Source: Microcystis aeruginosa NIES-843
Lineage (GTDB): Bacteria; Cyanobacteriota; Cyanobacteriia; Cyanobacteriales; Microcystaceae
DNA length: 32,000 nt
Direction: 5' to 3'
Assembly: GCF_000010625.1 (NCBI RefSeq)
Contig: NC_010296.1
Span: 1,020,001 to 1,052,000, forward strand
Shown here: positions 3,529 to 30,992 of the stretch, piece after piece
How the letters are laid out: every line of letters starts with the position of its first letter
How positions within the stretch are numbered: the stretch's first letter is position 1
Notes under the pieces: model-generated
The model's database searches: none
Told to the model about the DNA's origin: nothing
Seen by the model: the letters and a program-made list of their open reading frames with translations, nothing else
Position numbers and translations under genes: made by a program

Positions 3529-5274
3529 TTAAAACTCTACTTGCAAGTCTCCCATCACAGTTGATATAGTCGCTGGATCTCCTTGACGATAGTAACCGCC
3601 GTTAACTTCGGCAATTTTTTGCAAAGCCTGGGGATTAAATTCTCCTTCTTTCCCATAACCAATAGTAAAGAAAGCAATTCGCTGATCGGAAGAAAAGCCA
3701 CTCTTTTGCAACTCTTGTTCCAACTGATCCAGATTAATTTGTGACCCCGAATCTTCTCCATCAGTTAAGATTAACACGGCATTAATAGTATCAGTCCGCA
3801 AATTTTGAGATAGCCAGTTGCGGGCATAGAGGGCGCTATCATAAAGTCTGGTTCCACCACTGGACCGCAGTTGGCCAATAAATTCAATGCCGCGATCTCG
3901 CCCCTGTGGAGTTCCTTCTATAATCACAGGTTCGTTAATAACTGAATTGAAACTAATTAGGGCAATTCTTTCCTTCGGTCCCAGGTTCTGAACGTAATTA
4001 AGTAAAGTATTCTTAACTGATGTCAGTTTTTGCCCTTCCATCGACCCAGAAGTATCAATTACTACTGCTACTTGCGACGGTTTCTTGGCATAATTTTGCC
4101 AGCTTTTAAGCATGGCTTCAACTACTTCTGGTTGGGGCGAACGGTAAGAGTCATAGGTGGGTTGAGGATTCACGCCAAATTCAGCAGAAAACTTGCTTCC
4201 CAAGGCTACTCCTGGAACACCCGGTCGCAGTCCCAAATCTGTGGCAATTTGTTGGGTTTCGGGCAAAAGAATGAATTCAATTACCTTTTCAGCAGCTTCT
4301 TTTTCTCGGTCACTTATCCAAGGCGCATGGGCTAAAATTGCCCGCATATTGGAACTGAAAGTAGCCTTGGGATAGACGGCTTGATAGCGCGTTTGATTGG
4401 AACCAGCTTGGCTGTTAGCAGCAATTACCAAAGACTCGTAAACTGAGGCTACTGAAGCCCAAAAGGGTCCGTTGGCGACCATAGATTGGGCAAGGGAAGC
4501 GGTAGAAGTACCATAGCGAGTGATTTTACTCTGGATCTGTTGAATTTGTCCCTGATATTTTTCTACGTCAGCTACAGTCAGATCTTCTGGGCGCTTACCT
4601 GCTACAGCAGCAAATTGGGCCACCAGGGTTTGTAAGCCAGAATTAGAACGGGTAGGCGCGGTGTGGACGTAAGTGATGGGGAGGGGTGGGGCTTTGGGAT
4701 CGAGTTGGCGGTAGTTACCCAATTTAGCTAGGGCGACGAAGGGATCTTCTACTTTTTCTAAACCCTTGGCGAGGTCAGCGGTTGTCATGAAAACCATCGG
4801 ACTGTAGGCGATCAGGGGTGAGTCGGTAATTTCCGGGATGTAATTTTGTCCGGGAAATAGCTTGTTCATCTGGTAGATGAGTTGACTCTGATAAATTTCG
4901 CCATCGACGGATAAAAGGGTGGGAAATTCGGGCGCATCGGCTTTGAGAGTTCCATTTTGGTACTGTTGGGCCAGCGAGAGAATCGTTTGGACCACATCGC
5001 CGCTTCCTTTAGCTTCGCAACTGAGGTAAAAGGCTTCACCGCTAGCGAGTTTGGGTTGGCTTTGGTTCAATTTCGTGGCTGCTTGCTGACAGAATTGGGC
5101 TAGGTCGCTTCCCACGAGAAATTTGACTTCAAGTCCCTGTTGTCTGGGTTGTTGGCTTCCTTGTTGTTGGGGTTGCTGTCCACAAGCGCCTAGAAATACT
5201 AAGGTAGACAGGACGGTTAAGGGAGTAACTGAGGTTAAATAACGAGAAAAAGGAAGATTTTGGCGTTTAATCAT
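3529..5274 (-). CDS. Putative lipoprotein with an N-terminal solute-binding-like domain and a C-terminal von Willebrand factor A (vWA) domain
   Basis: Signal peptide with a lipobox-like LGAC. The C-terminus has vWA MIDAS-type motifs (VAVVIDTSGSM ... LILTDGEDS). The ATG at 5274 (MIKRQNL...) is preferred over the TTG at 5298 given in the ORF track. Confidence 0.8.
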   Translation of the reverse strand: MIKRQNLPFSRYLTSVTPLTVLSTLVFLGACGQQPQQQGSQQPRQQGLEVKFLVGSDLAQFCQQAATKLNQSQPKLASGEAFYLSCEAKGSGDVVQTILSLAQQYQNGTLKADAPEFPTLLSVDGEIYQSQLIYQMNKLFPGQNYIPEITDSPLIAYSPMVFMTTADLAKGLEKVEDPFVALAKLGNYRQLDPKAPPLPITYVHTAPTRSNSGLQTLVAQFAAVAGKRPEDLTVADVEKYQGQIQQIQSKITRYGTSTASLAQSMVANGPFWASVASVYESLVIAANSQAGSNQTRYQAVYPKATFSSNMRAILAHAPWISDREKEAAEKVIEFILLPETQQIATDLGLRPGVPGVALGSKFSAEFGVNPQPTYDSYRSPQPEVVEAMLKSWQNYAKKPSQVAVVIDTSGSMEGQKLTSVKNTLLNYVQNLGPKERIALISFNSVINEPVIIEGTPQGRDRGIEFIGQLRSSGGTRLYDSALYARNWLSQNLRTDTINAVLILTDGEDSGSQINLDQLEQELQKSGFSSDQRIAFFTIGYGKEGEFNPQALQKIAEVNGGYYRQGDPATISTVMGDLQVEF

Positions 5275-5349
5275 GAGTCTTGACAGAGTAATAACCAATA
5301 AAGCACGAAGTTACTCGGATCAATGCAGATGGGATGAGAACATATTTCC

Positions 5350-6816
5350 CTAAAATGTCGGATGAATGCCCCCGCTAAATTTTTCGACAAGACATCAACC
5401 TTTGCGGGGGATGAAATCCGACCAAGATATTAACTGCGAAGCACTATTTTAATTCTACCATTTGTAGGTAAACTGTGTTATACTTAATTTAGCCAAAGGT
5501 CGAGGATGTTAGATGCTAGTCGTAGAAGCAAAGCTAAAAAACGGAACACCAGAGCAATATCACCAGCTTGATGAAGCTATCAAAACTTCTCAGTTTGTGC
5601 GTAACTCTTGTGTTCGTTATTGGCGGTTCAATCAAGGGACAACCCGTAATGATCTCCAAAAACTTTGTGCTGTACTAGCTAACAATAAAGAGACCCCTTG
5701 GGTTAATAAATTAAACTCTCAAGCTCGTCAATCGGCTGCTGATAGAGCCTGGCAATCAATTAATAGGTTTTACCAGAATTGTCATGCCAAGATACCAGGG
5801 GAAAAGGGTTTTCCCCGATTTAAAAAACCTAGTCGTTCGGTTGAATACAAACTAACGGGCTACAAACTATCTGAGGATCGACGTAAAATCAGATTTACTG
5901 ACGGTTTTAAAGCAGGAGAATTTGATTTATGGTGTAGTCAAAAAACCTTAGTTTATTATTCAGATCAACAGATTAAACGGGTAAGAGTTGTTAGACGTGC
6001 CGATGGTTATTATTGTCAGTTTTTGATTGACGTAGAACGGCAAGAATACCATGAACCAACGGGACAAATAACAGGAATTGACTTAGGTTTAAAGGAATTT
6101 TATACCGATGCCCAAGGTAATACTGTAGAGAATCCACGTTATTTAAGAAAGTCAGAAAAACGACTGAAAAAAGCACAAAGGAGATTATCAAAACGATTTC
6201 GCAAAGGAAAGAAACAGTCTAACAACTATCACAAGCAACGGATAAAAGTAGCTAGGCTTCATCTTAAGGTATCAAGACAACGTAAAGACAAAGCAATTAA
6301 AGACGCTTTGGCGTTAGTCCAGTCTAATGATCTGGTAGTCTATGAAGCTTTAAAGGTAAGAAACTTAGTCAAAAACCGTAAGCTTGCCAAGTCGATTTCT
6401 GATGCTTCTTGGTATCAATTCACCGAATGGTTGAATTATTTTGCCAAGATTTATCGGATTGTTTGTATTGCTGTTCCTCCCCATTTTACTAGCCAAGATT
6501 GTTCAGTTTGTGGGACGAGAGTTCAAAAAACCTTAAGCACTAGAACTCATCAATGTCCTAATTGTCAAACAGTCTTAGATAGGGATCATAATGCAGCAAT
6601 AAATATTCTTAAAAAAGGGTTGAAATATTTGGGAAATCATCTCAACGGTACTGTTGGGCAAACAGAAACCGACCCAAACGCCTTGGGAGAGTCCGGCCTC
6701 TGGATTCTTAATGGAGACATTGAGAATCTAAGCTGTCTCGTTGAACAAGGAATTTCCGATAGTGATCTGGAAAGAATCTCCCGTCACAGCGTAGCTTGAC
6801 GGTGGGAGTATGTCAA
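5350..6816 (+). mobile_element. IS200/IS605-family element carrying tnpB only (no tnpA), copy 1, 1467 bp
   Basis: Boundaries come from alignment with copy 2 (15126-16624). The shared left end starts at ctaaaat(g/a)tcggatgaat with a subterminal hairpin (cccccgc 5369-5375 / gcggggg 5404-5410). The shared right end stops at gtatgTCAA. No terminal inverted repeats or TSD, as expected for this family. An extended -10 sequence TGtTATACT lies at 5476-5484 upstream of tnpB. Confidence 0.85.
5513..6799 (+). CDS. tnpB: TnpB (IS605 OrfB-type RNA-guided RuvC nuclease), 428 aa
   Basis: RuvC-like D/E/D contexts are present (ITGIDLGLKEF; LVVYEALKVRNL; DRDHNAAINIL), with a CxxC...CxxC zinc finger (CSVCG...CPNC) between the second and third motifs. 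The length and K/R-rich central helix are typical of this family. Confidence 0.9.
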   Translation: MLVVEAKLKNGTPEQYHQLDEAIKTSQFVRNSCVRYWRFNQGTTRNDLQKLCAVLANNKETPWVNKLNSQARQSAADRAWQSINRFYQNCHAKIPGEKGFPRFKKPSRSVEYKLTGYKLSEDRRKIRFTDGFKAGEFDLWCSQKTLVYYSDQQIKRVRVVRRADGYYCQFLIDVERQEYHEPTGQITGIDLGLKEFYTDAQGNTVENPRYLRKSEKRLKKAQRRLSKRFRKGKKQSNNYHKQRIKVARLHLKVSRQRKDKAIKDALALVQSNDLVVYEALKVRNLVKNRKLAKSISDASWYQFTEWLNYFAKIYRIVCIAVPPHFTSQDCSVCGTRVQKTLSTRTHQCPNCQTVLDRDHNAAINILKKGLKYLGNHLNGTVGQTETDPNALGESGLWILNGDIENLSCLVEQGISDSDLERISRHSVA

Positions 6817-6836: not shown

Positions 6837-7217
6837 ATACCCTAGTGGTGCTGAGAACTCTTGAAAGTTTTTCTGTACAAGGATTTGCAGTCAGACTGGG
6901 GGGTGTCAAAAGGAGCGGCCGTATGAGATGCTCAACTTTCCCAACTTAAGGTTATCCCCACACCAGATACTCTCCTCTTAGTGCGATCGCTGCTTTGAGC
7001 CTGTGCATTAACAAACTATACTGCCTATAGGAAATTTTAGGACAAATGCTTGAACTGGCAACTCCGGCACTCCCGTACAATCTTAACGAGCAATCTGGAT
7101 AAACATCTTCAATGCTGCTTTTGAGAAGGAGACGGGTTGCTAAAGCCTCTATAATAAGTAGCCATAGAGATGCCGACAACTTCCCCTGTCGATAGCGAAT
7201 AAGGAGAAAAAAACCCA

Positions 7218-7580
7218 GTGTTTGTCCTCAAAGGTTACGAGTATTTTCTAGGATTTCTGCTTGCTTGCAGTTTAGTACCAATCCTATCCCTAACTGCCTC
7301 CAAAGTCCTGCGGCCTAGTGGTGGTGGTCCGGAAAGACGCACCACTTATGAATCGGGGATGGAACCGATCGGCGGTGCTTGGATTCAGTTTAACATTCGT
7401 TATTATATGTTTGCCCTCGTTTTCGTGGTTTTTGACGTGGAAACCGTCTTTCTCTACCCTTGGGCAGTAGCTTTCAATCAATTGGGCCTATTAGCTTTTG
7501 TAGAAGCACTGATCTTTATTGCTATCCTTGTGGTTGCTCTCGTCTATGCTTGGCGAAAAGGAGCCTTAGAATGGTCATAA
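7218..7580 (+). CDS. ndhC: NAD(P)H-quinone oxidoreductase subunit 3 (NDH-1 subunit C)
   Basis: The 120-aa three-TM protein is recognisable full-length as NdhC (…[12 protein letters not shown]…[12 protein letters not shown]…). GTG start. Followed by ndhK and ndhJ in the conserved order. Confidence 0.95.
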
Positions 7581-15125: not shown

Positions 15126-16624
15126 CTAAAATATCGGATGAATACCCCCGCTACATTTTTCGATAAGATACTCACAAAAATTAGCGGGGGATGAAATCCG
15201 ACCAGAATATCAATGACCCTGAGCGAAGTCGAAGGGTCAGCAACGGAGCATCGGTTTAATTCCACCATCTGTGGACAAACTGTGTTATAATCTACTTAAC
15301 CAATGGTCGAGAATTGTTAGATGCTAGTCGTAGAAGCAAAGCTAAAAAACGGGACACTAGAGCAATATCACCGGCTTGATGAAGCAATTAGAACATCTCA
15401 GTTTGTGCGTAACTCTTGTGTTCGTTATTGGATGGATCATAAGGGTACAACCCGCAATGATCTCCAAAAACTTTGCTCGGTACTAGCTAACAATAAAGAG
15501 ACCCCTTGGGTTAATAAATTAAACTCACAAGCACGTCAATCGGCTGCTGATAGAGCCTGGCAATCAATTAATCGGTTTTACCAGAATTGTCATGCCAAGA
15601 TACCGGGAAAAAAGGGGTTTCCTCGGTTCAAAAAGCATAGTCGTTCCGTTGAGTATAAACTAACAGGCTACCAACTATCTGATGATAGACGTAAAATCAG
15701 ATTTACTGATGGCTTTAAAGCAGGAGAATTTGATTTATGGTGTAGTCAAAAGACGTTAGTTTATTATTCAGAACAACAGATTAGACGGGTAAGAGTTGTT
15801 AGACGTGCTGACGGTTATTATTGCCAGTTTCTGATTGACGTAGAACGGCAAGAATACCATAAACCAACGGGACAAATAACAGGAATTGACTTAGGGTTAA
15901 AGGAATTTTATACCGATGCTCAAGGTAATACTGTAGAGAATCCACGTTATTTAAGAAAGTCAGAAAAACGACTTCAAAAAGCACAACGACGATTATCTAA
16001 GAAATTCCGTAAAGGAAAGAAACAGTCTAAAAACTATCATAAGCAACGGGTAAAGGTAGCCAAGCTTCATCTTAAAGTATCAAGACAACGTAAAGACAAA
16101 GCAATTAAAGACGCTTTGGCGTTAGTCCAGTCTAATGATCTGGTAGTCTATGAAGCTTTAAAGGTAAGAAACTTAGTCAAAAACCGTAAGCTTGCCAAGT
16201 CGATTTCCGATGCTTCTTGGTATCAATTCACTGAATGGTTGAATTATTTTGCTAAGATTTATCGGATTGTTTGTGTTGCTGTACCACCGCATTTCACTTC
16301 TCAAGATTGTTCAGTTTGTGGGACGAGAGTTCAAAAAACCTTAAGCACTAGAACTCATCAATGTCCTAATTGTCAAACAGTCTTAGATAGGGATCATAAT
16401 GCAGCAATAAATATTCTTAAAAAAGGGTTGAAATATTTGGGAAATCATCTCAACGGTACTGTTGGGCAAACAGAAACCGACCCAAACGCCTTGGGAGAGT
16501 CCGGCCTCTGGATTTTCAGTGGAGACATTGAGAATCTAAGCTGTCTCGTTGAACAAGGAATTTCCGATAGTGATCTGGAAAGAATCCCCCGTCACAGCGT
16601 AGCTTGACGGTGGGAGTATGTCAA
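15126..16624 (+). mobile_element. IS200/IS605-family tnpB-only element, copy 2, 1499 bp
   Basis: Preceded by TTAC (15122-15125) and ends in TCAA (16621-16624); these are the cleavage motifs I recall for IS608-type elements. Left-end hairpin cccccgcta / tagcggggg. Colinear with copy 1 at a constant 9808-bp offset from tnpB to the right end. The left end is ~32 bp longer because of a palindromic insert (15214-15239). Extended -10 TGtTATAAT lies near 15283-15291. Confidence 0.85.
15321..16607 (+). CDS. tnpB: TnpB (IS605 OrfB-type RNA-guided nuclease), 428 aa, about 95% identical to copy 1
   Basis: Same length as copy 1, with all RuvC and zinc-finger motifs intact. I counted roughly 22 amino-acid differences, mostly in the N-terminal two thirds. 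Confidence 0.9.
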   Translation: MLVVEAKLKNGTLEQYHRLDEAIRTSQFVRNSCVRYWMDHKGTTRNDLQKLCSVLANNKETPWVNKLNSQARQSAADRAWQSINRFYQNCHAKIPGKKGFPRFKKHSRSVEYKLTGYQLSDDRRKIRFTDGFKAGEFDLWCSQKTLVYYSEQQIRRVRVVRRADGYYCQFLIDVERQEYHKPTGQITGIDLGLKEFYTDAQGNTVENPRYLRKSEKRLQKAQRRLSKKFRKGKKQSKNYHKQRVKVAKLHLKVSRQRKDKAIKDALALVQSNDLVVYEALKVRNLVKNRKLAKSISDASWYQFTEWLNYFAKIYRIVCVAVPPHFTSQDCSVCGTRVQKTLSTRTHQCPNCQTVLDRDHNAAINILKKGLKYLGNHLNGTVGQTETDPNALGESGLWIFSGDIENLSCLVEQGISDSDLERIPRHSVA

Positions 16625-26969: not shown

Positions 26970-27134
26970 TAGCTTTAGACAATGATTTATACATTATACA
27001 GTTAAAACTGAACCCAAGTAAGACAGCTAACGGCCATGGTCAGCGGTGGTAATCAAAAATGGCGTTGCTGAATCAAGATATGAATACTAATGAATGCACC
27101 TATCCACAAGTTAGCCTAGTTCTAGGTTTTAAAA

Positions 27135-27755
27135 ATTGCCAAAGAAGACAATTTCCTAGAAGTACAATTGAGGTTTTATTCCCGTTTCTTCAGTGAAATC
27201 TTCCTCTATCTCCACCAAACGGACTTAAGCAACAACTGGCAGGGAGTAGTTATTTATCCTCGGCGTTCAGTGGAAAGCGTAGAGACTGCTTGTTATGGGG
27301 AGTTAATCAACTCCAGCAGGATTTTACGTTTTTATCTCGAGGAATTAAGGGAAGGGGAATCCCTGGGAATATCAATGTTACAGTTAATTGTAGCACCAAC
27401 CGCCAGAGCGATCGAGCAAGGAAAACAATTAATTCCACGGATTAGAGAAGAATTCCCTAATCTCAAACAACAGCCAGAACTTTTAGAATTGATAGAGACA
27501 ATTTTGGTTTATAAGTTACCCCAAGTCAGTAGAAAGTAGATAGAAGCGATGTTTAGTTTAAGTGATTTAAAACAAACTAAAGTGTATCAGGAAGCTTTAG
27601 AAGAAGGTAGAGAGGAGGGCCGACAAGAAGGTGAATTAGCAGCAAAATTAGCCTCTATTCCTCGTTTATTGGCATTAGGATTAAACTTTGAACAGATAGC
27701 ACAGGCTTTAGAATTAGATATCGAACAGGTTAGACAAGCAACTCAAAGGGAATAG
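27135..27755 (+). pseudogene. Rpn-family (DUF2887 + DUF4351, PD-(D/E)xK putative transposase) gene remnant, N-terminally truncated with an in-frame TAG
   Basis: …LEVQLRFYSRFFSEIFLYL… and …ILVYKLPQVSRK*IEAMFSLSDLKQTKVYQEALEEGR… match the cyanobacterial Rpn-like family pattern. Stops lie upstream of ~27135 and an in-frame TAG at 27537-27539. Confidence 0.7.
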
Positions 27756-27767
27756 GAAAGGTTCAAA
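27416..27767 (+). repeat. Left copy of a 352-bp direct duplication (period 596 bp) covering the Rpn-remnant 3' part and the 68-aa DUF4351 ORF 27549..27755
   Basis: Aligns with 28012-28363 with 4 substitutions and no indels (checked by constant offset). Confidence 0.9.
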
Positions 27768-27852
27768 GCGATCGCACTAAGGTTAGATAGCGTATCATGC
27801 TAAACGACTTTTGTACTATAGCAGAGAGACTAGCTGTGTCATCATTAGACAT

Positions 27853-27962
27853 CTCCGAAAACGTAGGGACAATTCATGAATTTTACTCCAAAAATGTAGG
27901 GACAATTCATGAATTGTCCCTACCAAGGGTTTCAGATTACGCATATTTAATTTTCGGAAATA
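27853..27962. mobile_element. Small palindromic MITE-like element containing a perfect 28-nt palindrome
   Basis: Outer inverted repeats ctccgaaaa (27853-) / ttttcggaaa (-27960). A half-copy gtagggacaattcatgaatt lies at 27863-27882 and the perfect palindrome gtagggacaattcatgaattgtccctac at 27896-27923. Confidence 0.6.
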
Positions 27963-28011
27963 TCTATTCTCTATCATCTGGGATTATTGGCATATCTGTA
28001 ATGATTTGATG

Positions 28012-28363
28012 GCAGGGAAAACAATTAATTCCACGGATTAGAGAAGAATTCCCTAATCTCAAACAACAGCAAGAACTTTTAGAATTGATAGAGACAATCT
28101 TGGTTTATAAGTTACCCCAAGTCAGTAGAAAGTAGATAGAAGCGATGTTTAGTTTAAGTGATTTAAAACAAACTAAAGTGTATCAGGAAGCTTTAGAAGA
28201 AGGTAGAGAGGAGGGCCGACAAGAAGGTGAATTAGCGGCAAAATTAGCCTCTATTCCTCGTTTATTGGCATTAGGATTAAACTTTGAACAGATAGCACAA
28301 GCTTTAGAATTAGATATCGAACAGGTTAGACAAGCAACTCAAAGGGAATAGGAAAGGTTCAAA
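28012..28363 (+). repeat. Right copy of the 352-bp duplication, containing the identical 68-aa DUF4351 ORF 28145..28351
   Basis: See the left copy. Inside the 68-aa ORF the only two differences are synonymous (gca/gcg Ala, cag/caa Gln). Confidence 0.9.
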
Positions 28364-28663
28364 CTTTGACAAATTGATACAATTGCTGGTGGCTATCTTT
28401 TGCCGGTAGCCATCAAGTAAAAATCGGCAACCCCGAAAATCTCTCAAGTCTTCTGTAGCTAAAGAGAAATCAAAAGTACAAACCCAATAAGACAAAATTA
28501 TTCCTAATCTGCCTTCTTCTAATTCGCTGACTGCCACTATTTGATTATCAGTATTTCTTAAAACAATTGTCCCATTTTTGTATATATCCGTAAATCCGCC
28601 AGTTGCTATACACGGACTACCGACTTGCCATTGATTATTAATTGGCATTAAGTAGGGAGGCAC
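28310..28663 (-). CDS. Hypothetical small protein whose C-terminus reads through into repeat sequence
   Basis: The likely start MPINNQWQVG is at 28648. Compared with the homologous stub at 24864 (…tgc TGA), this copy has tgc CGA, so the frame continues ~45 codons into the antisense of the DUF4351 repeat. No family recognised. Confidence 0.35.
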   Translation of the reverse strand: MPPYLMPINNQWQVGSPCIATGGFTDIYKNGTIVLRNTDNQIVAVSELEEGRLGIILSYWVCTFDFSLATEDLRDFRGCRFLLDGYRQKIATSNCINLSKFEPFLFPLSCLSNLFDI

Positions 28664-28740
28664 AATTATTTGTAGGATGGGTTAGCGGTAGCGTAACATA
28701 ATCGGGCGTTGGGTTTCATGCTTCAACCCAACCTACGTTC
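28651..28740. mobile_element. MITE-C copy 1 (90 bp, hairpin-rich)
   Basis: About 90% identical to the reverse complement of 31071-31160. Contains the hairpin gttgggtttcatgcttcaacccaac. Flanked by a 26-bp direct duplication (28625-28650 = 28741-28766). Confidence 0.8.
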
Positions 28741-28860
28741 TTGCCATTGATTATTAATTGGCATTACTTGTTTAAATATTGTCATAGATCCAGTGAGAGT
28801 ATTAACTGGACTAGCTATTACTGCTTACTGCATGGCAACCAACAAAAATGTGGACAAAGC

Positions 28861-29093
28861 TTTAATCATATACAACTTCAAAACTAATACAAATATTCCA
28901 CAACGCCTTATTGTATTTTTACTGAAAATTTTTTATAACATTTTTAAATTATGTACGTTATAACTATTAAGATTATTAAACCAATCTTAGTATTTGAGTA
29001 TTAATTACTTACTTTTTTGTTGGTGCTATAATATTTTTAACTTTATTTAAATAAAAGTCATGCAAAAAATACAAGTGATTCCAAGAAAAGGTA
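28861..29093 (+). promoter_or_regulatory. AT-rich leader-like tract with a candidate extended -10 promoter (TGcTATAAT, 29024-29032)
   Basis: I counted 51 G/C in 28861-29100 (~21% GC), far below the rest of the window. No ORF. It ends at the CRISPR-type repeat. No good -35 sequence is visible. Confidence 0.4.
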
Positions 29094-29130
29094 GTTCCAA
29101 TTAATCTTAATCCCTATTAGGGATTGAAAC
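29094..29130 (+). CRISPR. Solitary 37-nt CRISPR-type repeat GTTCCAATTAATCTTAATCCCTATTAGGGATTGAAAC with no spacers and no second repeat
   Basis: It has a GTT... start, an internal 6-bp hairpin aatccc-tatta-gggatt and an ATTGAAAC 3' end (the 8-nt handle of Cas6-processed class 1 repeats). It closely resembles 37-nt repeats I recall from Microcystis and other cyanobacterial I-D/III arrays. I found no other copy in the window on either strand. Confidence 0.65.
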
Positions 29131-29203
29131 TTGGAGGCAAAAATCAGCGATACTGATATTGAGATCACGATGGTGAATCCAGAAGAGATAAAGGAGACAG
29201 AAA

Positions 29204-29536
29204 ATGGATAACGAAACCGTCACTTATTCCCTAGAAGCAGTTCTGACAAGGATTGAGGGGAAAATTGACTCTCTGGAAAAACGGATCGATGACAGATTTG
29301 ATAAGGTAGATAAGAGATTTGATAAGATAGAAGAACGGTTGACGAAAGTGGAAATAGGACAAGTCGAACTCAAAGGGGAGATTAAAGCCTTAGATGAGCG
29401 ACTAACCACAGAAATTAAAGGGTTAACTGCAAGAGTCGCCTATCAGGAATTTACCAATCGGGGGATTCTCATCGCTCTGGTTGTGGCCATTTTAGGAGGG
29501 GCTGCTAAACTTTTTGGTTTTTTCCCCAATCCCTAA
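29204..29536 (+). CDS. Coiled-coil protein with a C-terminal TM anchor, 110 aa
   Basis: Strong RBS AAGGAG 8 nt upstream. Repetitive (R)(I/F)DK... heptads, then GILIALVVAILGGAAKLFGFF. Family unknown. Confidence 0.7.
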   Translation: MDNETVTYSLEAVLTRIEGKIDSLEKRIDDRFDKVDKRFDKIEERLTKVEIGQVELKGEIKALDERLTTEIKGLTARVAYQEFTNRGILIALVVAILGGAAKLFGFFPNP

Positions 29537-29639
29537 CAGCGATCGCCCTAAAATGCTGTAGAATTAGCTTGACAAAAGTGAGACAAGGCCAAAGACTCTC
29601 TCGAAATGCAGTTAAATAATTGGATGGCGACCTAAAAAT

Positions 29640-30992
29640 ATGAGTGAATTAACTATTCGTCCAGCTAAAATTAGTGGTGTCATCCCAGATTCGATCGCCG
29701 CCGAGGTGGGTTTTGAAATCGGGGATGCGCTCCTCTCTATCAATGGTAATCGTCCCCGGGACTTAATCGATTATCAATTTTTATGTGCCGATGAATTTTT
29801 AACCCTAGAAGTGCTTGATAGTCAGGGCAAAACTCACCGGATAGAAATCGAAAAAGATTATCATGAAGACTTAGGTTTAGAGTTTGAAACTGCCCTTTTT
29901 GATGGCTTAATTCAGTGCAATAATAAATGTCCTTTTTGCTTTATCGACCAACAACCAGAGGGCAAAAGAGAAACTTTATACTATAAAGATGATGACTATC
30001 GCTTAAGTTTTCTCTATGGCAGTTATTTAACCTTAACTAATCTCACCTCAAAAGAATGGCAGCGGATCGAAAAGATGCACATATCACCGCTTTTTGTGTC
30101 CGTTCATGCCACGGAACCCGATCTGAGGATTCGTCTCTTAAAAAATCCCCGCGCTGGTCAAATTTTAGACCATTTAAAATGGCTACAAGCCAGACAATTA
30201 CAAATTCATGCCCAAGTGGTAGTTTGTCCCAATATTAATGATGGAATTCATCTCGAAAGAACCCTGTTAGATCTGGTTTCTTTTCATCGGGGAGATATTC
30301 CCTGTGTGGAGTCGATTGCCGTAGTTCCCGTGGGATTAACCCGCTTTCGTCCCCAAGAAGATGAATTAATTCCCGTTAGCCAAGAAAAAGCGCGAGAAGT
30401 GATCGAACAAGTCCAAACTTTACAGAAACAATTTTGTCAAGAATTTGGCAGTAATGTGGTATGGTTAGCCGATGAATGGTTTTTAATTGCCCGAGTCGAT
30501 TTACCACCTCAATCTCACTACGAAGACTATCCCCAAATCGGTAACGGGGTTGGCTCGATTCGTCAATTTCTTAGGGATTTCCAGAAGACAGCCAAGAAGT
30601 TATTACCTGCTCAAATTAATCCTTCTAGACGGTTAATATGGGTAGTGGGAAATGCGGTAGAACAAGCTTTTCAACCCCTAGTTAAACAGTTAAATAATCT
30701 GCGAGGTTTAACCGTGGAATTAGTGGCTTTAAATAGTGATTATTGGGGGCAGGAAATCACGGTTACGGGTTTATTAACCGGGCAAGATATTCTCAAAGGA
30801 TTACAAGGTAAAAATCTTGGGGATGGGGTTTTATTACCCTCCCTCATGCTCAAGCATGGGGAATCGGTATTTTTAGATGATCTCACCCTAGAAACTGTTA
30901 TTAATCAGTTAGGAGTCCCTATTTATCCAGTCCTGGGAGTGGAGGAATTAATTAAAACTTGTCTTACTCTCAATCCCTTGAACAAATCCTAA
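29640..30992 (+). CDS. PDZ plus radical-SAM (DUF512 / cyanobacterial FeS oxidoreductase-type) protein, 450 aa
   Basis: N-terminal PDZ-like segment (GFEIGDALLSINGN), Cx3Cx2C motif CNNKCPFC, and overall DUF512-like architecture. Confidence 0.8.
   Translation: MSELTIRPAKISGVIPDSIAAEVGFEIGDALLSINGNRPRDLIDYQFLCADEFLTLEVLDSQGKTHRIEIEKDYHEDLGLEFETALFDGLIQCNNKCPFCFIDQQPEGKRETLYYKDDDYRLSFLYGSYLTLTNLTSKEWQRIEKMHISPLFVSVHATEPDLRIRLLKNPRAGQILDHLKWLQARQLQIHAQVVVCPNINDGIHLERTLLDLVSFHRGDIPCVESIAVVPVGLTRFRPQEDELIPVSQEKAREVIEQVQTLQKQFCQEFGSNVVWLADEWFLIARVDLPPQSHYEDYPQIGNGVGSIRQFLRDFQKTAKKLLPAQINPSRRLIWVVGNAVEQAFQPLVKQLNNLRGLTVELVALNSDYWGQEITVTGLLTGQDILKGLQGKNLGDGVLLPSLMLKHGESVFLDDLTLETVINQLGVPIYPVLGVEELIKTCLTLNPLNKS

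Follow-up and report, generated by a model that had tools for sequence, protein, structure and literature searches.

Why should a single CRISPR repeat stand alone in front of a gene encoding a small membrane protein? This question is raised by a 32-kb stretch of Microcystis aeruginosa DNA (positions 1,020,001 to 1,052,000 of contig NC_010296.1; hereafter, the window), which carries one 37-nt repeat of the type I-D family DR1 a short distance upstream of an open reading frame (ORF) of 110 aa. An earlier note, made from the letters of the window alone, had described an "orphan leader" followed by this repeat and had proposed either a fully collapsed array or a repeat recruited as a Cas6 processing or Cas-binding site. 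By comparing the locus with its counterparts in other Microcystis strains, we conclude that the lone repeat is likely to be the last surviving unit of an old, decaying, cas-less DR1 mini-array, i.e. a relic and not a recruited Cas6 site.

Sequence and Fold of the Lone Repeat

The 37-nt element, GTTCCAATTAATCTTAATCCCTATTAGGGATTGAAAC, is the sole match to itself in the window when up to three mismatches are allowed (0 expected, 100 shuffles), and the second-best ungapped match reaches 25 of the 37 positions, the maximum among 50 shuffles being 24. The Rfam family CRISPR-DR5 (RF01318) spans the whole repeat, from position 1 to position 37, and scores 50.1 bits (gathering score, 40). No other Rfam family matched, whether the whole window was scanned at the gathering threshold or the surroundings of the site at E <= 1. 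The element is identical at 36 of 37 positions to GTTCCAATTAATCTTAAACCCTATTAGGGATTGAAAC, the DR1 repeat, which Yang et al. (2015, PMC4428289) connect with subtype I-D in 12 of 14 M. aeruginosa strains, and the sole change is an A to T at position 18 (T18). The same T is present in other repeats of the mini-array found between ftsH and the DUF512 gene in related strains (see below), and the main DR1 arrays have A or G there. T18 abolishes the internal stem mismatch of the canonical DR1, and the computed fold of the window repeat reaches -10 kcal/mol as compared with -5.3 kcal/mol. The earlier note had listed CRISPR hallmarks, a single occurrence, and a hairpin of 6 bp; the hallmarks, the single occurrence, and the hairpin stand, but the fold gives a stem of 9 bp, stronger than had been stated.

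Like the DR1 repeats of Microcystis, and probably in the same host genome as some of them, the window copy starts with GTT, contains a hairpin, and ends with ATTGAAAC. Unlike the DR1 arrays, it is single and has neither a spacer nor a canonical leader nor an adjoining cas gene, and it carries T18. As judged from its sequence, the window repeat is a genuine class 1 (type I-D) CRISPR repeat and a member of the DR1/CRISPR-DR5 family. We found no paper mentioning this particular copy, and the sequence of the repeat turned up in only two papers.

Two candidates for a second repeat were rejected. The sequence at 29513-29549, at the 3' end of the 110-aa gene and also picked up as an inverted repeat, was discarded because AATCCCTA encodes a conserved C terminus, FFPNP*, that is also present in paralogues lacking any repeat. 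The 25/37 match at 29785 lies inside conserved DUF512 coding sequence and, being one above the shuffle maximum, was treated as chance. A degenerate repeat about 35 nt upstream or downstream of the lone repeat, which would delimit a hidden spacer, gave no match above chance.

Arrays of the Same Repeat and Their Leaders

When the 37-mer, with two positions left free, was scanned against one genome per species, 18 stretches matched, all but one of them from Microcystis, and these included arrays of 25-106 units. The earlier note had asked whether the repeat forms arrays beside cas6, and it does: in one stretch (L021; the prefix L numbers the stretches used for comparison) a type I-D operon with csc2, a cas3-type helicase gene, cas6, cas4, cas1, and cas2 lies upstream of a leader and a DR1 array. 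Three DR1 arrays with 112, 20, and 40 repeats have been reported in strain NIES-843 (Yang et al. 2015, PMC4428289). Because the host of the window is NIES-843 or a near-identical strain, and in view of that published table, a complete type I-D system very probably exists alongside the lone repeat, at another place in the chromosome.

These arrays also show what a DR1 leader looks like. Six independent ones (L007, L010, L011, L014, L017, and L021) have in common a leader of about 300 bp with 46-47% GC that ends in ...CTTTTACCACTGGGCG before the first repeat, and a second leader type is common to the DR1 arrays of L008 and L015. In the latter two arrays, the first one or two units after this second leader are of another repeat variant, GAAGCAATTAAGCTTAAGCCTTACTAAGGATTGAAAC (L008, 4160-4267; L015, about 7195-7302).

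The DNA that precedes the lone repeat is of another kind. As the earlier note had observed, an AT-rich tract with an extended -10-like sequence stands in front of the repeat: it measures 233 bp with 20.6% GC versus 42.9% for the whole window, and the box, TGCTATAAT, lies at 29024-29032, 62 nt upstream of the repeat. This box is a match to the consensus only, and the two-hexamer sigma-70 scan did not flag it. The interpretation as an orphan leader did not hold, since the genuine DR1 leaders are conserved, have 46-47% GC, and are unrelated to this DNA; BLAST detected no similarity between either leader type and window positions 27000-29093, and the tract was rejected as a leader. Among the syntenic loci described below, the AT-rich DNA is confined to the lineage of the window (L001-L004 and L036), with its last ~70 nt also present in L037. 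A phage or plasmid origin was likewise rejected, as neither the AT-rich segment nor its junction with the repeat matched anything in the phage, plasmid, or viral-contig collections apart from the repeat itself. When a miniature inverted-repeat transposable element (MITE) lying further upstream was excised in silico, a minus-strand ORF was found to start near 28785, and the AT-rich tract is therefore best regarded as an ordinary divergent intergenic region.

In agreement with the earlier note, no spacers and no cas genes were found in the window, as checked by the repeat scan and by Pfam scans of about 29 ORFs. The locus does not look like a functional array, as there is no second repeat in 32 kb, no homologous leader, and no adjoining cas gene. 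The sole Cas-related domains in the window belong to two TnpB-type genes of 428 aa (5513-6799 and 15321-16607; OrfB_IS605 plus a Cas12f1-like TNB domain).

The Locus in Other Microcystis Strains

Twenty syntenic loci that carry the 110-aa gene were collected with the exact protein, close orthologues, and a 31-mer of the 73-nt region between repeat and gene, and a gene-less locus of Microcystis novacekii (L005) was added. Eight of the 20 were retrieved with the exact 31-mer, which biases the set toward conservation in that region and nearby. At least eight architectures can be distinguished among the loci; they are wholly different upstream of the repeat but from there on share one succession of repeat, 73 nt, gene, and DUF512 gene.

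A single repeat is found in the window and in L001-L004, L036, and L037. In the commonest architecture (L045, L046, L031, L033, and L048), ftsH and a terminator are followed by a leader-like region, a degenerate repeat (R'), a 34-nt palindromic spacer (TTTGTAGGGTTGATTCATGAATCAACCCTACAGC), the gene-proximal repeat, the 73 nt, and the gene; the corresponding protein cluster has 80 member sequences, those of strains TAIHU98 and PCC 7806 included. Three to five repeats are present in L013, L012, L035, L047, and L049, where a 619-bp segment with an ORF for a 147-aa membrane protein lies between two complete repeats, and a 403-bp ORF-bearing segment is bounded in the same way in L032. The gene-proximal repeat is split by a MITE of about 150 bp in L030 and is reduced to GAAAC in L034, with the 73 nt and the gene intact in the latter. 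Finally, L005 has two repeats with a different palindromic spacer directly before the DUF512 gene and no 110-aa gene. The MITE of L030, a metagenomic strain, occupies about 5230-5381 of the reverse complement, has the ends TAGCGTTT...AAACGCTA, and is inserted after GTTCCAATTA.

Thus, the question posed by the earlier note of whether other strains hold a longer array at this position is answered affirmatively: two to five repeats end at the same repeat-gene junction in L012, L013, L031-L033, L035, and L045-L049. Its proposal of a fully collapsed array was essentially right, with the exception of the dedicated leader. In BLAST comparisons with L012/L013, the homology of the window sets in precisely at 29094, the first base of the repeat, and this breakpoint suggests recombination at or within a repeat.

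These data make the following history likely. An old, non-adapting, cas-less type I-D (DR1) mini-array would have lain between ftsH and the DUF512 gene, directly before the 73 nt and the 110-aa gene. The window repeat would represent its gene-proximal (3'-terminal) unit; this repeat has no dedicated leader, and spacer acquisition is not to be expected of it. In the NIES-843 lineage, the ftsH flank, the leader-like region, the degenerate first repeat, and the palindromic "spacer" would have been replaced by unrelated AT-rich DNA, presumably by recombination at or within a repeat.

The clean junctions also bear on a different explanation, according to which DR1 units act as attachment-like recombination or integration sites that swap ORF cassettes and the AT-rich segment, either by repeat-repeat recombination or by aberrant Cas1-Cas2 activity. 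The first base of the repeat is the exact point at which at least five unrelated upstream sequences are joined to it, and the ORF-bearing segments of 403 bp (L032) and 619 bp (L047/L013) are bounded on both sides by complete repeats in the manner of spacers. However, this was seen at one locus and with a handful of cassettes, the AT-rich segment has no repeat at its far end, the two cassette ORFs that were searched gave no match, one in the phage and the other in the plasmid collection, and ordinary homologous recombination between repeats accounts for the clean junctions with no need of a dedicated mechanism. We regard such an exchange function as very unlikely.

The DR1-bounded segments, which resemble giant spacers, span 701-1319 in L047 (with counterparts in L013, L012, L035, and L049), 430-832 in L032, and about 873-1317 in L005. 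These segments, 403-619 bp long, encode the AT-rich membrane protein of 147 aa, a 111-aa protein, and a small secreted-looking protein. In tblastn searches, the 147-aa ORF had no match in the phage collection and the 111-aa ORF had none in the plasmid collection, and on this basis the cassettes were not taken for phage or plasmid DNA.

Decay of the Mini-array

If the mini-array is a relic, its parts should be eroding, and the relatives of the window carry further repeats at the same junction, with the repeats degenerate and the spacer frozen. The 3' handle of the upstream repeat R' is mutated to GAAAG or AATAC, the same bases being those that would form the 5' handle of any CRISPR RNA (crRNA). 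The gene-proximal repeat has variants (AGAG and AAGG) in sister strains whose computed fold has lost the canonical hairpin, and no compensatory stem changes were seen in the syntenic loci. In two further loci the repeat is interrupted (L030) or lost (L034), and the gene and the 73 nt are kept. The 34-nt spacer does not vary among the aligned loci, and its 28-nt core is a palindrome dispersed in the genome, found outside any CRISPR context in L009, L034, and L025 and, as a variant, in the window.

This palindrome, GTAGGG..ATTCATGAAT..CCCTAC, recurs in Microcystis intergenic DNA (window, 27896-27923; L009, 6177-6204; L034, 9176-9203; L025, 5130-5252). Its variant GTAGGGTTGATTCATGAATCAACCCTAC is the invariant "spacer" of the ftsH-DUF512 mini-array.

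Several observations weigh against a mere relic. The repeat-gene junction survives many rearrangements in several species-level lineages of Microcystis. The earlier note had named a terminal repeat with an unconserved junction as an outcome that would speak against its own interpretation, and the junction is in fact conserved. The mean pairwise difference is 0.066 for the repeat and 0.024 for the 73 nt versus 0.22 for the intergenic DNA that follows the gene, a comparison biased by the eight loci that were fetched through the 31-mer. The hairpin of the window lineage is perfect and better than that of the canonical DR1, and simple decay predicts otherwise. A search with FtsH homologues for the reciprocal, ftsH-side junction in NIES-843 returned fragment clusters only, and no published transcription start site or differential RNA sequencing maps for Microcystis were found in the literature.

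The 110-aa Gene and a Possible Role of the Repeat in Its mRNA

As the earlier note had indicated, the repeat ends 73 nt before a well-initiated ORF, with AAGGAG located 7 nt before the ATG at 29204. The 73 nt also contain a 13-codon upstream ORF (29170-29211; MVNPEEIKETENG) that overlaps the main start codon in another frame. A simple scan of positions 28700-29700 found no two-hexamer promoter and no terminator.

The repeat is probably transcribed within the 5' region of the mRNA of the 110-aa gene, from a promoter that would be the TGCTATAAT box or would lie inside the conserved 110 nt formed by repeat and 73-nt region. If transcription begins at TGCTATAAT, the repeat would be in the 5' region of the gene because there is no terminator between the two. 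Type I-D repeats are cut by Cas6d past the stem, which leaves an 8-nt 5' handle (reviewed in PMC10212523). Cas6d may cut the window repeat past its stem and generate an mRNA that starts with ATTGAAAC (29123), and such cleavage is possible in NIES-843 since a type I-D system is present and the hairpin is intact. The comparison of strains indicates that this cleavage, plausible as a by-product, would be incidental and not a selected function.

An alternative, raised in part by the earlier note, is that the repeat was recruited as a processing or regulatory site, at which Cas6d, perhaps with Cas5d/Cas7d on the ATTGAAAC handle, would tie expression of the 110-aa membrane protein to type I-D system status. 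The succession of repeat, 73 nt, and gene is indeed kept in every gene-bearing architecture, the hairpin is intact and unusually stable in the window strain, NIES-843 has type I-D cas genes including cas6, no terminator separates repeat and gene, and Cas6d cuts past the stem to leave the 8-nt handle. On the other hand, many sister lineages have a broken stem, a MITE-split repeat, or a GAAAC remnant with the 73 nt and the gene intact, no compensatory changes accompany the broken stems, the paralogues have no repeat at all, and M. novacekii has repeats but not the gene. The claim of a recruited Cas6 or Cas-binding site is thus unsupported by the comparison, and we consider it unlikely.

In a broader version, the DR1 units would be maintained: in strains with an intact hairpin, such as NIES-843, Cas6d would leave an mRNA with the ATTGAAAC handle, type I-D Cascade subunits would assemble on it and link the coiled-coil membrane protein with CRISPR-Cas activity, and the repeats might serve besides as exchange points for ORF cassettes. 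This version appears to us rather improbable.

The 110-aa protein belongs to a family that is multi-copy in Microcystis (1135 matches, members of 103-146 aa). Its members occur in tandem runs of five to seven genes beside pilin genes (L025, L028, L043, and L044) and at an M50-peptidase locus. No repeats were found at the six paralogue loci examined, and the paralogues were dismissed as repeat carriers, none being present in L023-L029 and L039-L044 representing other loci. Within the gene of the window, a 21-nt tandem duplication (29288-29329) suggests that the coiled coil changes in length by repeat slippage.

Relation to Known Solitary Repeats and Mini-arrays

The reading of the lone repeat as a relic finds a parallel in the degenerate terminal repeats and the ectopic, partly degraded repeat copies that have been described in CRISPR-positive genomes (Shmakov et al. 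2023, PMC10120712). Like these orphan repeats, the window repeat stands alone, is partly degraded in relatives, and shares its genome with an active CRISPR-Cas system of its own subtype. Unlike them, it is neither in nor near a cas locus, and its position before one particular gene is conserved across lineages.

The sister strains, with two repeat-like units 34 nt apart and an invariant spacer, also resemble the crRNA-like regulatory mini-arrays (CreA-type, and type I-D arrays targeting cas10d; PMC10120712). Two repeat-like units 15-60 bp apart occur in the sister strains and not in the window, which, unlike regulatory mini-arrays, has one repeat and no spacer. The form found in the sister strains differs from them too, as it lies far from cas genes, its spacer is the dispersed palindrome, and the 3' handle of R' is mutated.

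A third comparison is with solitary repeat units (SRUs) and RNA anti-CRISPRs (Racrs; Camara-Wilpert et al. 2023, PMC10651486), with which the window copy shares a lone repeat of the host subtype and, if the TGCTATAAT consensus match is counted, a promoter-like box upstream; a repeat co-transcribed with a protein gene also has a precedent there. By this analogy, the repeat would be a promoter-driven chromosomal decoy that sequesters Cas6d/Cas7d and damps type I-D immunity, possibly co-transcribed with the protein gene as in RacrIC1-AcrIC5. With the TGCTATAAT consensus match taken as a promoter-like box within 250 bp, the locus agrees with the bioinformatic definition of an SRU, being an intergenic copy of a known repeat with no neighboring partial repeats and a cognate host subtype; type I-D SRUs are listed in viral contigs, and Microcystis phages bear DR1 copies behind a strong promoter. 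Nevertheless, Racrs are small RNAs encoded on viruses, prophages, and plasmids, whereas the window copy is chromosomal and derived from a mini-array. It has no mobile-element context and a core gene on its right; neither the AT-rich segment nor its junction with the repeat matched the phage, plasmid, or viral collections; there is no terminator between repeat and gene; and synteny points to descent from a chromosomal mini-array instead of insertion. A decoy function therefore seems extremely unlikely.

The phage copies deserve a description in their own right. In cyanophage Ma-LMM01 (NC_008562.1, about 35762-35942; L038, 3001-3181), the host type I-D repeat occurs three times as GTTCCAATTAATCTTAAACCCTATTAGGGATTGAAAa, with 36/37 identity, and it is also present in MaMV-CH01, CH02, DL01, and DL02. 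The repeats stand directly behind a TTGACA-N17-TGCTATAAT promoter; copies 2 and 3 have an identical 19-nt sequence after them, which recurs in inverted orientation about 60 nt beyond. In the Ma-LMM01 record, the annotation is limited to a "56 bp repeat unit" and hypothetical proteins, and we found no mention of the phage DR1 copies in the papers searched. From their sequence and arrangement, they could be solitary-repeat or mini-array elements that have the type I-D system of the host as their target.

Other Features of the Region

The features of the locus are collected in Table 1. The DUF512 neighbor of the 110-aa gene is identical to BAG01027.1 of NIES-843. The MITE upstream of the AT-rich DNA is also present at 3596-3690 of L022 (100% identity) and at 11869-11963 of L001, and its 27-bp flanking duplication is unusually long. 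Farther upstream, a direct duplication of 300 nt (27416-27715 and 28012-28311, 596 bp apart) contains two identical 68-aa ORFs (27549-27755 and 28145-28351) that adjoin a DUF2887 fragment (27168-27539).

Table 1. Features around the solitary repeat, in window positions
Feature	Position	Strand	Basis or remark
95-bp MITE in a 27-bp direct duplication (28624-28650, 28740-28766)	28647-28741		Interrupts the 5' end of a minus-strand ORF, 28310-28663
AT-rich, lineage-specific intergenic DNA with TGCTATAAT; not a CRISPR leader	28861-29093		Composition, leader comparison, synteny
Solitary DR1-type (type I-D) CRISPR repeat	29094-29130	+	Single copy, CRISPR-DR5, identity to array repeat
Hairpin of the repeat, 9-bp stem and 3-nt loop	29107-29127	+	Computed fold
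ATTGAAAC, candidate 8-nt 5' handle of the downstream RNA if Cas6d cut past the stem	29123-29130	+	Sequence and Cas6d rule (PMC10212523)
Conserved 73-nt region	29131-29203	+	Near-identical in 20/20 gene-bearing syntenic loci, whatever lies upstream; AAGGAG at 29191-29196
110-aa coiled-coil protein with C-terminal hydrophobic segment, NCBI name "DUF4164"	29204-29536	+	Identical to BAG01026.1 of NIES-843
DUF512/TIGR03279 radical-SAM-like gene	29640-30992	+	Conserved in all strains, anchoring the locus on the right

Significance of the Locus

For the window itself little changes, as the comparison indicates a relic, and the case argues that comparative evidence is needed before a lone repeat is taken for a hidden array, a leader, or a regulator. 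The locus nevertheless constitutes a natural series of intact, weakened, interrupted, and deleted repeats at the same junction in type I-D strains, and this series could help to find out whether it matters for an mRNA to be cut by Cas6d in its 5' region. The repeat-bounded, ORF-sized segments and the copies of the host repeat that phages carry behind a strong promoter may merit a separate study.

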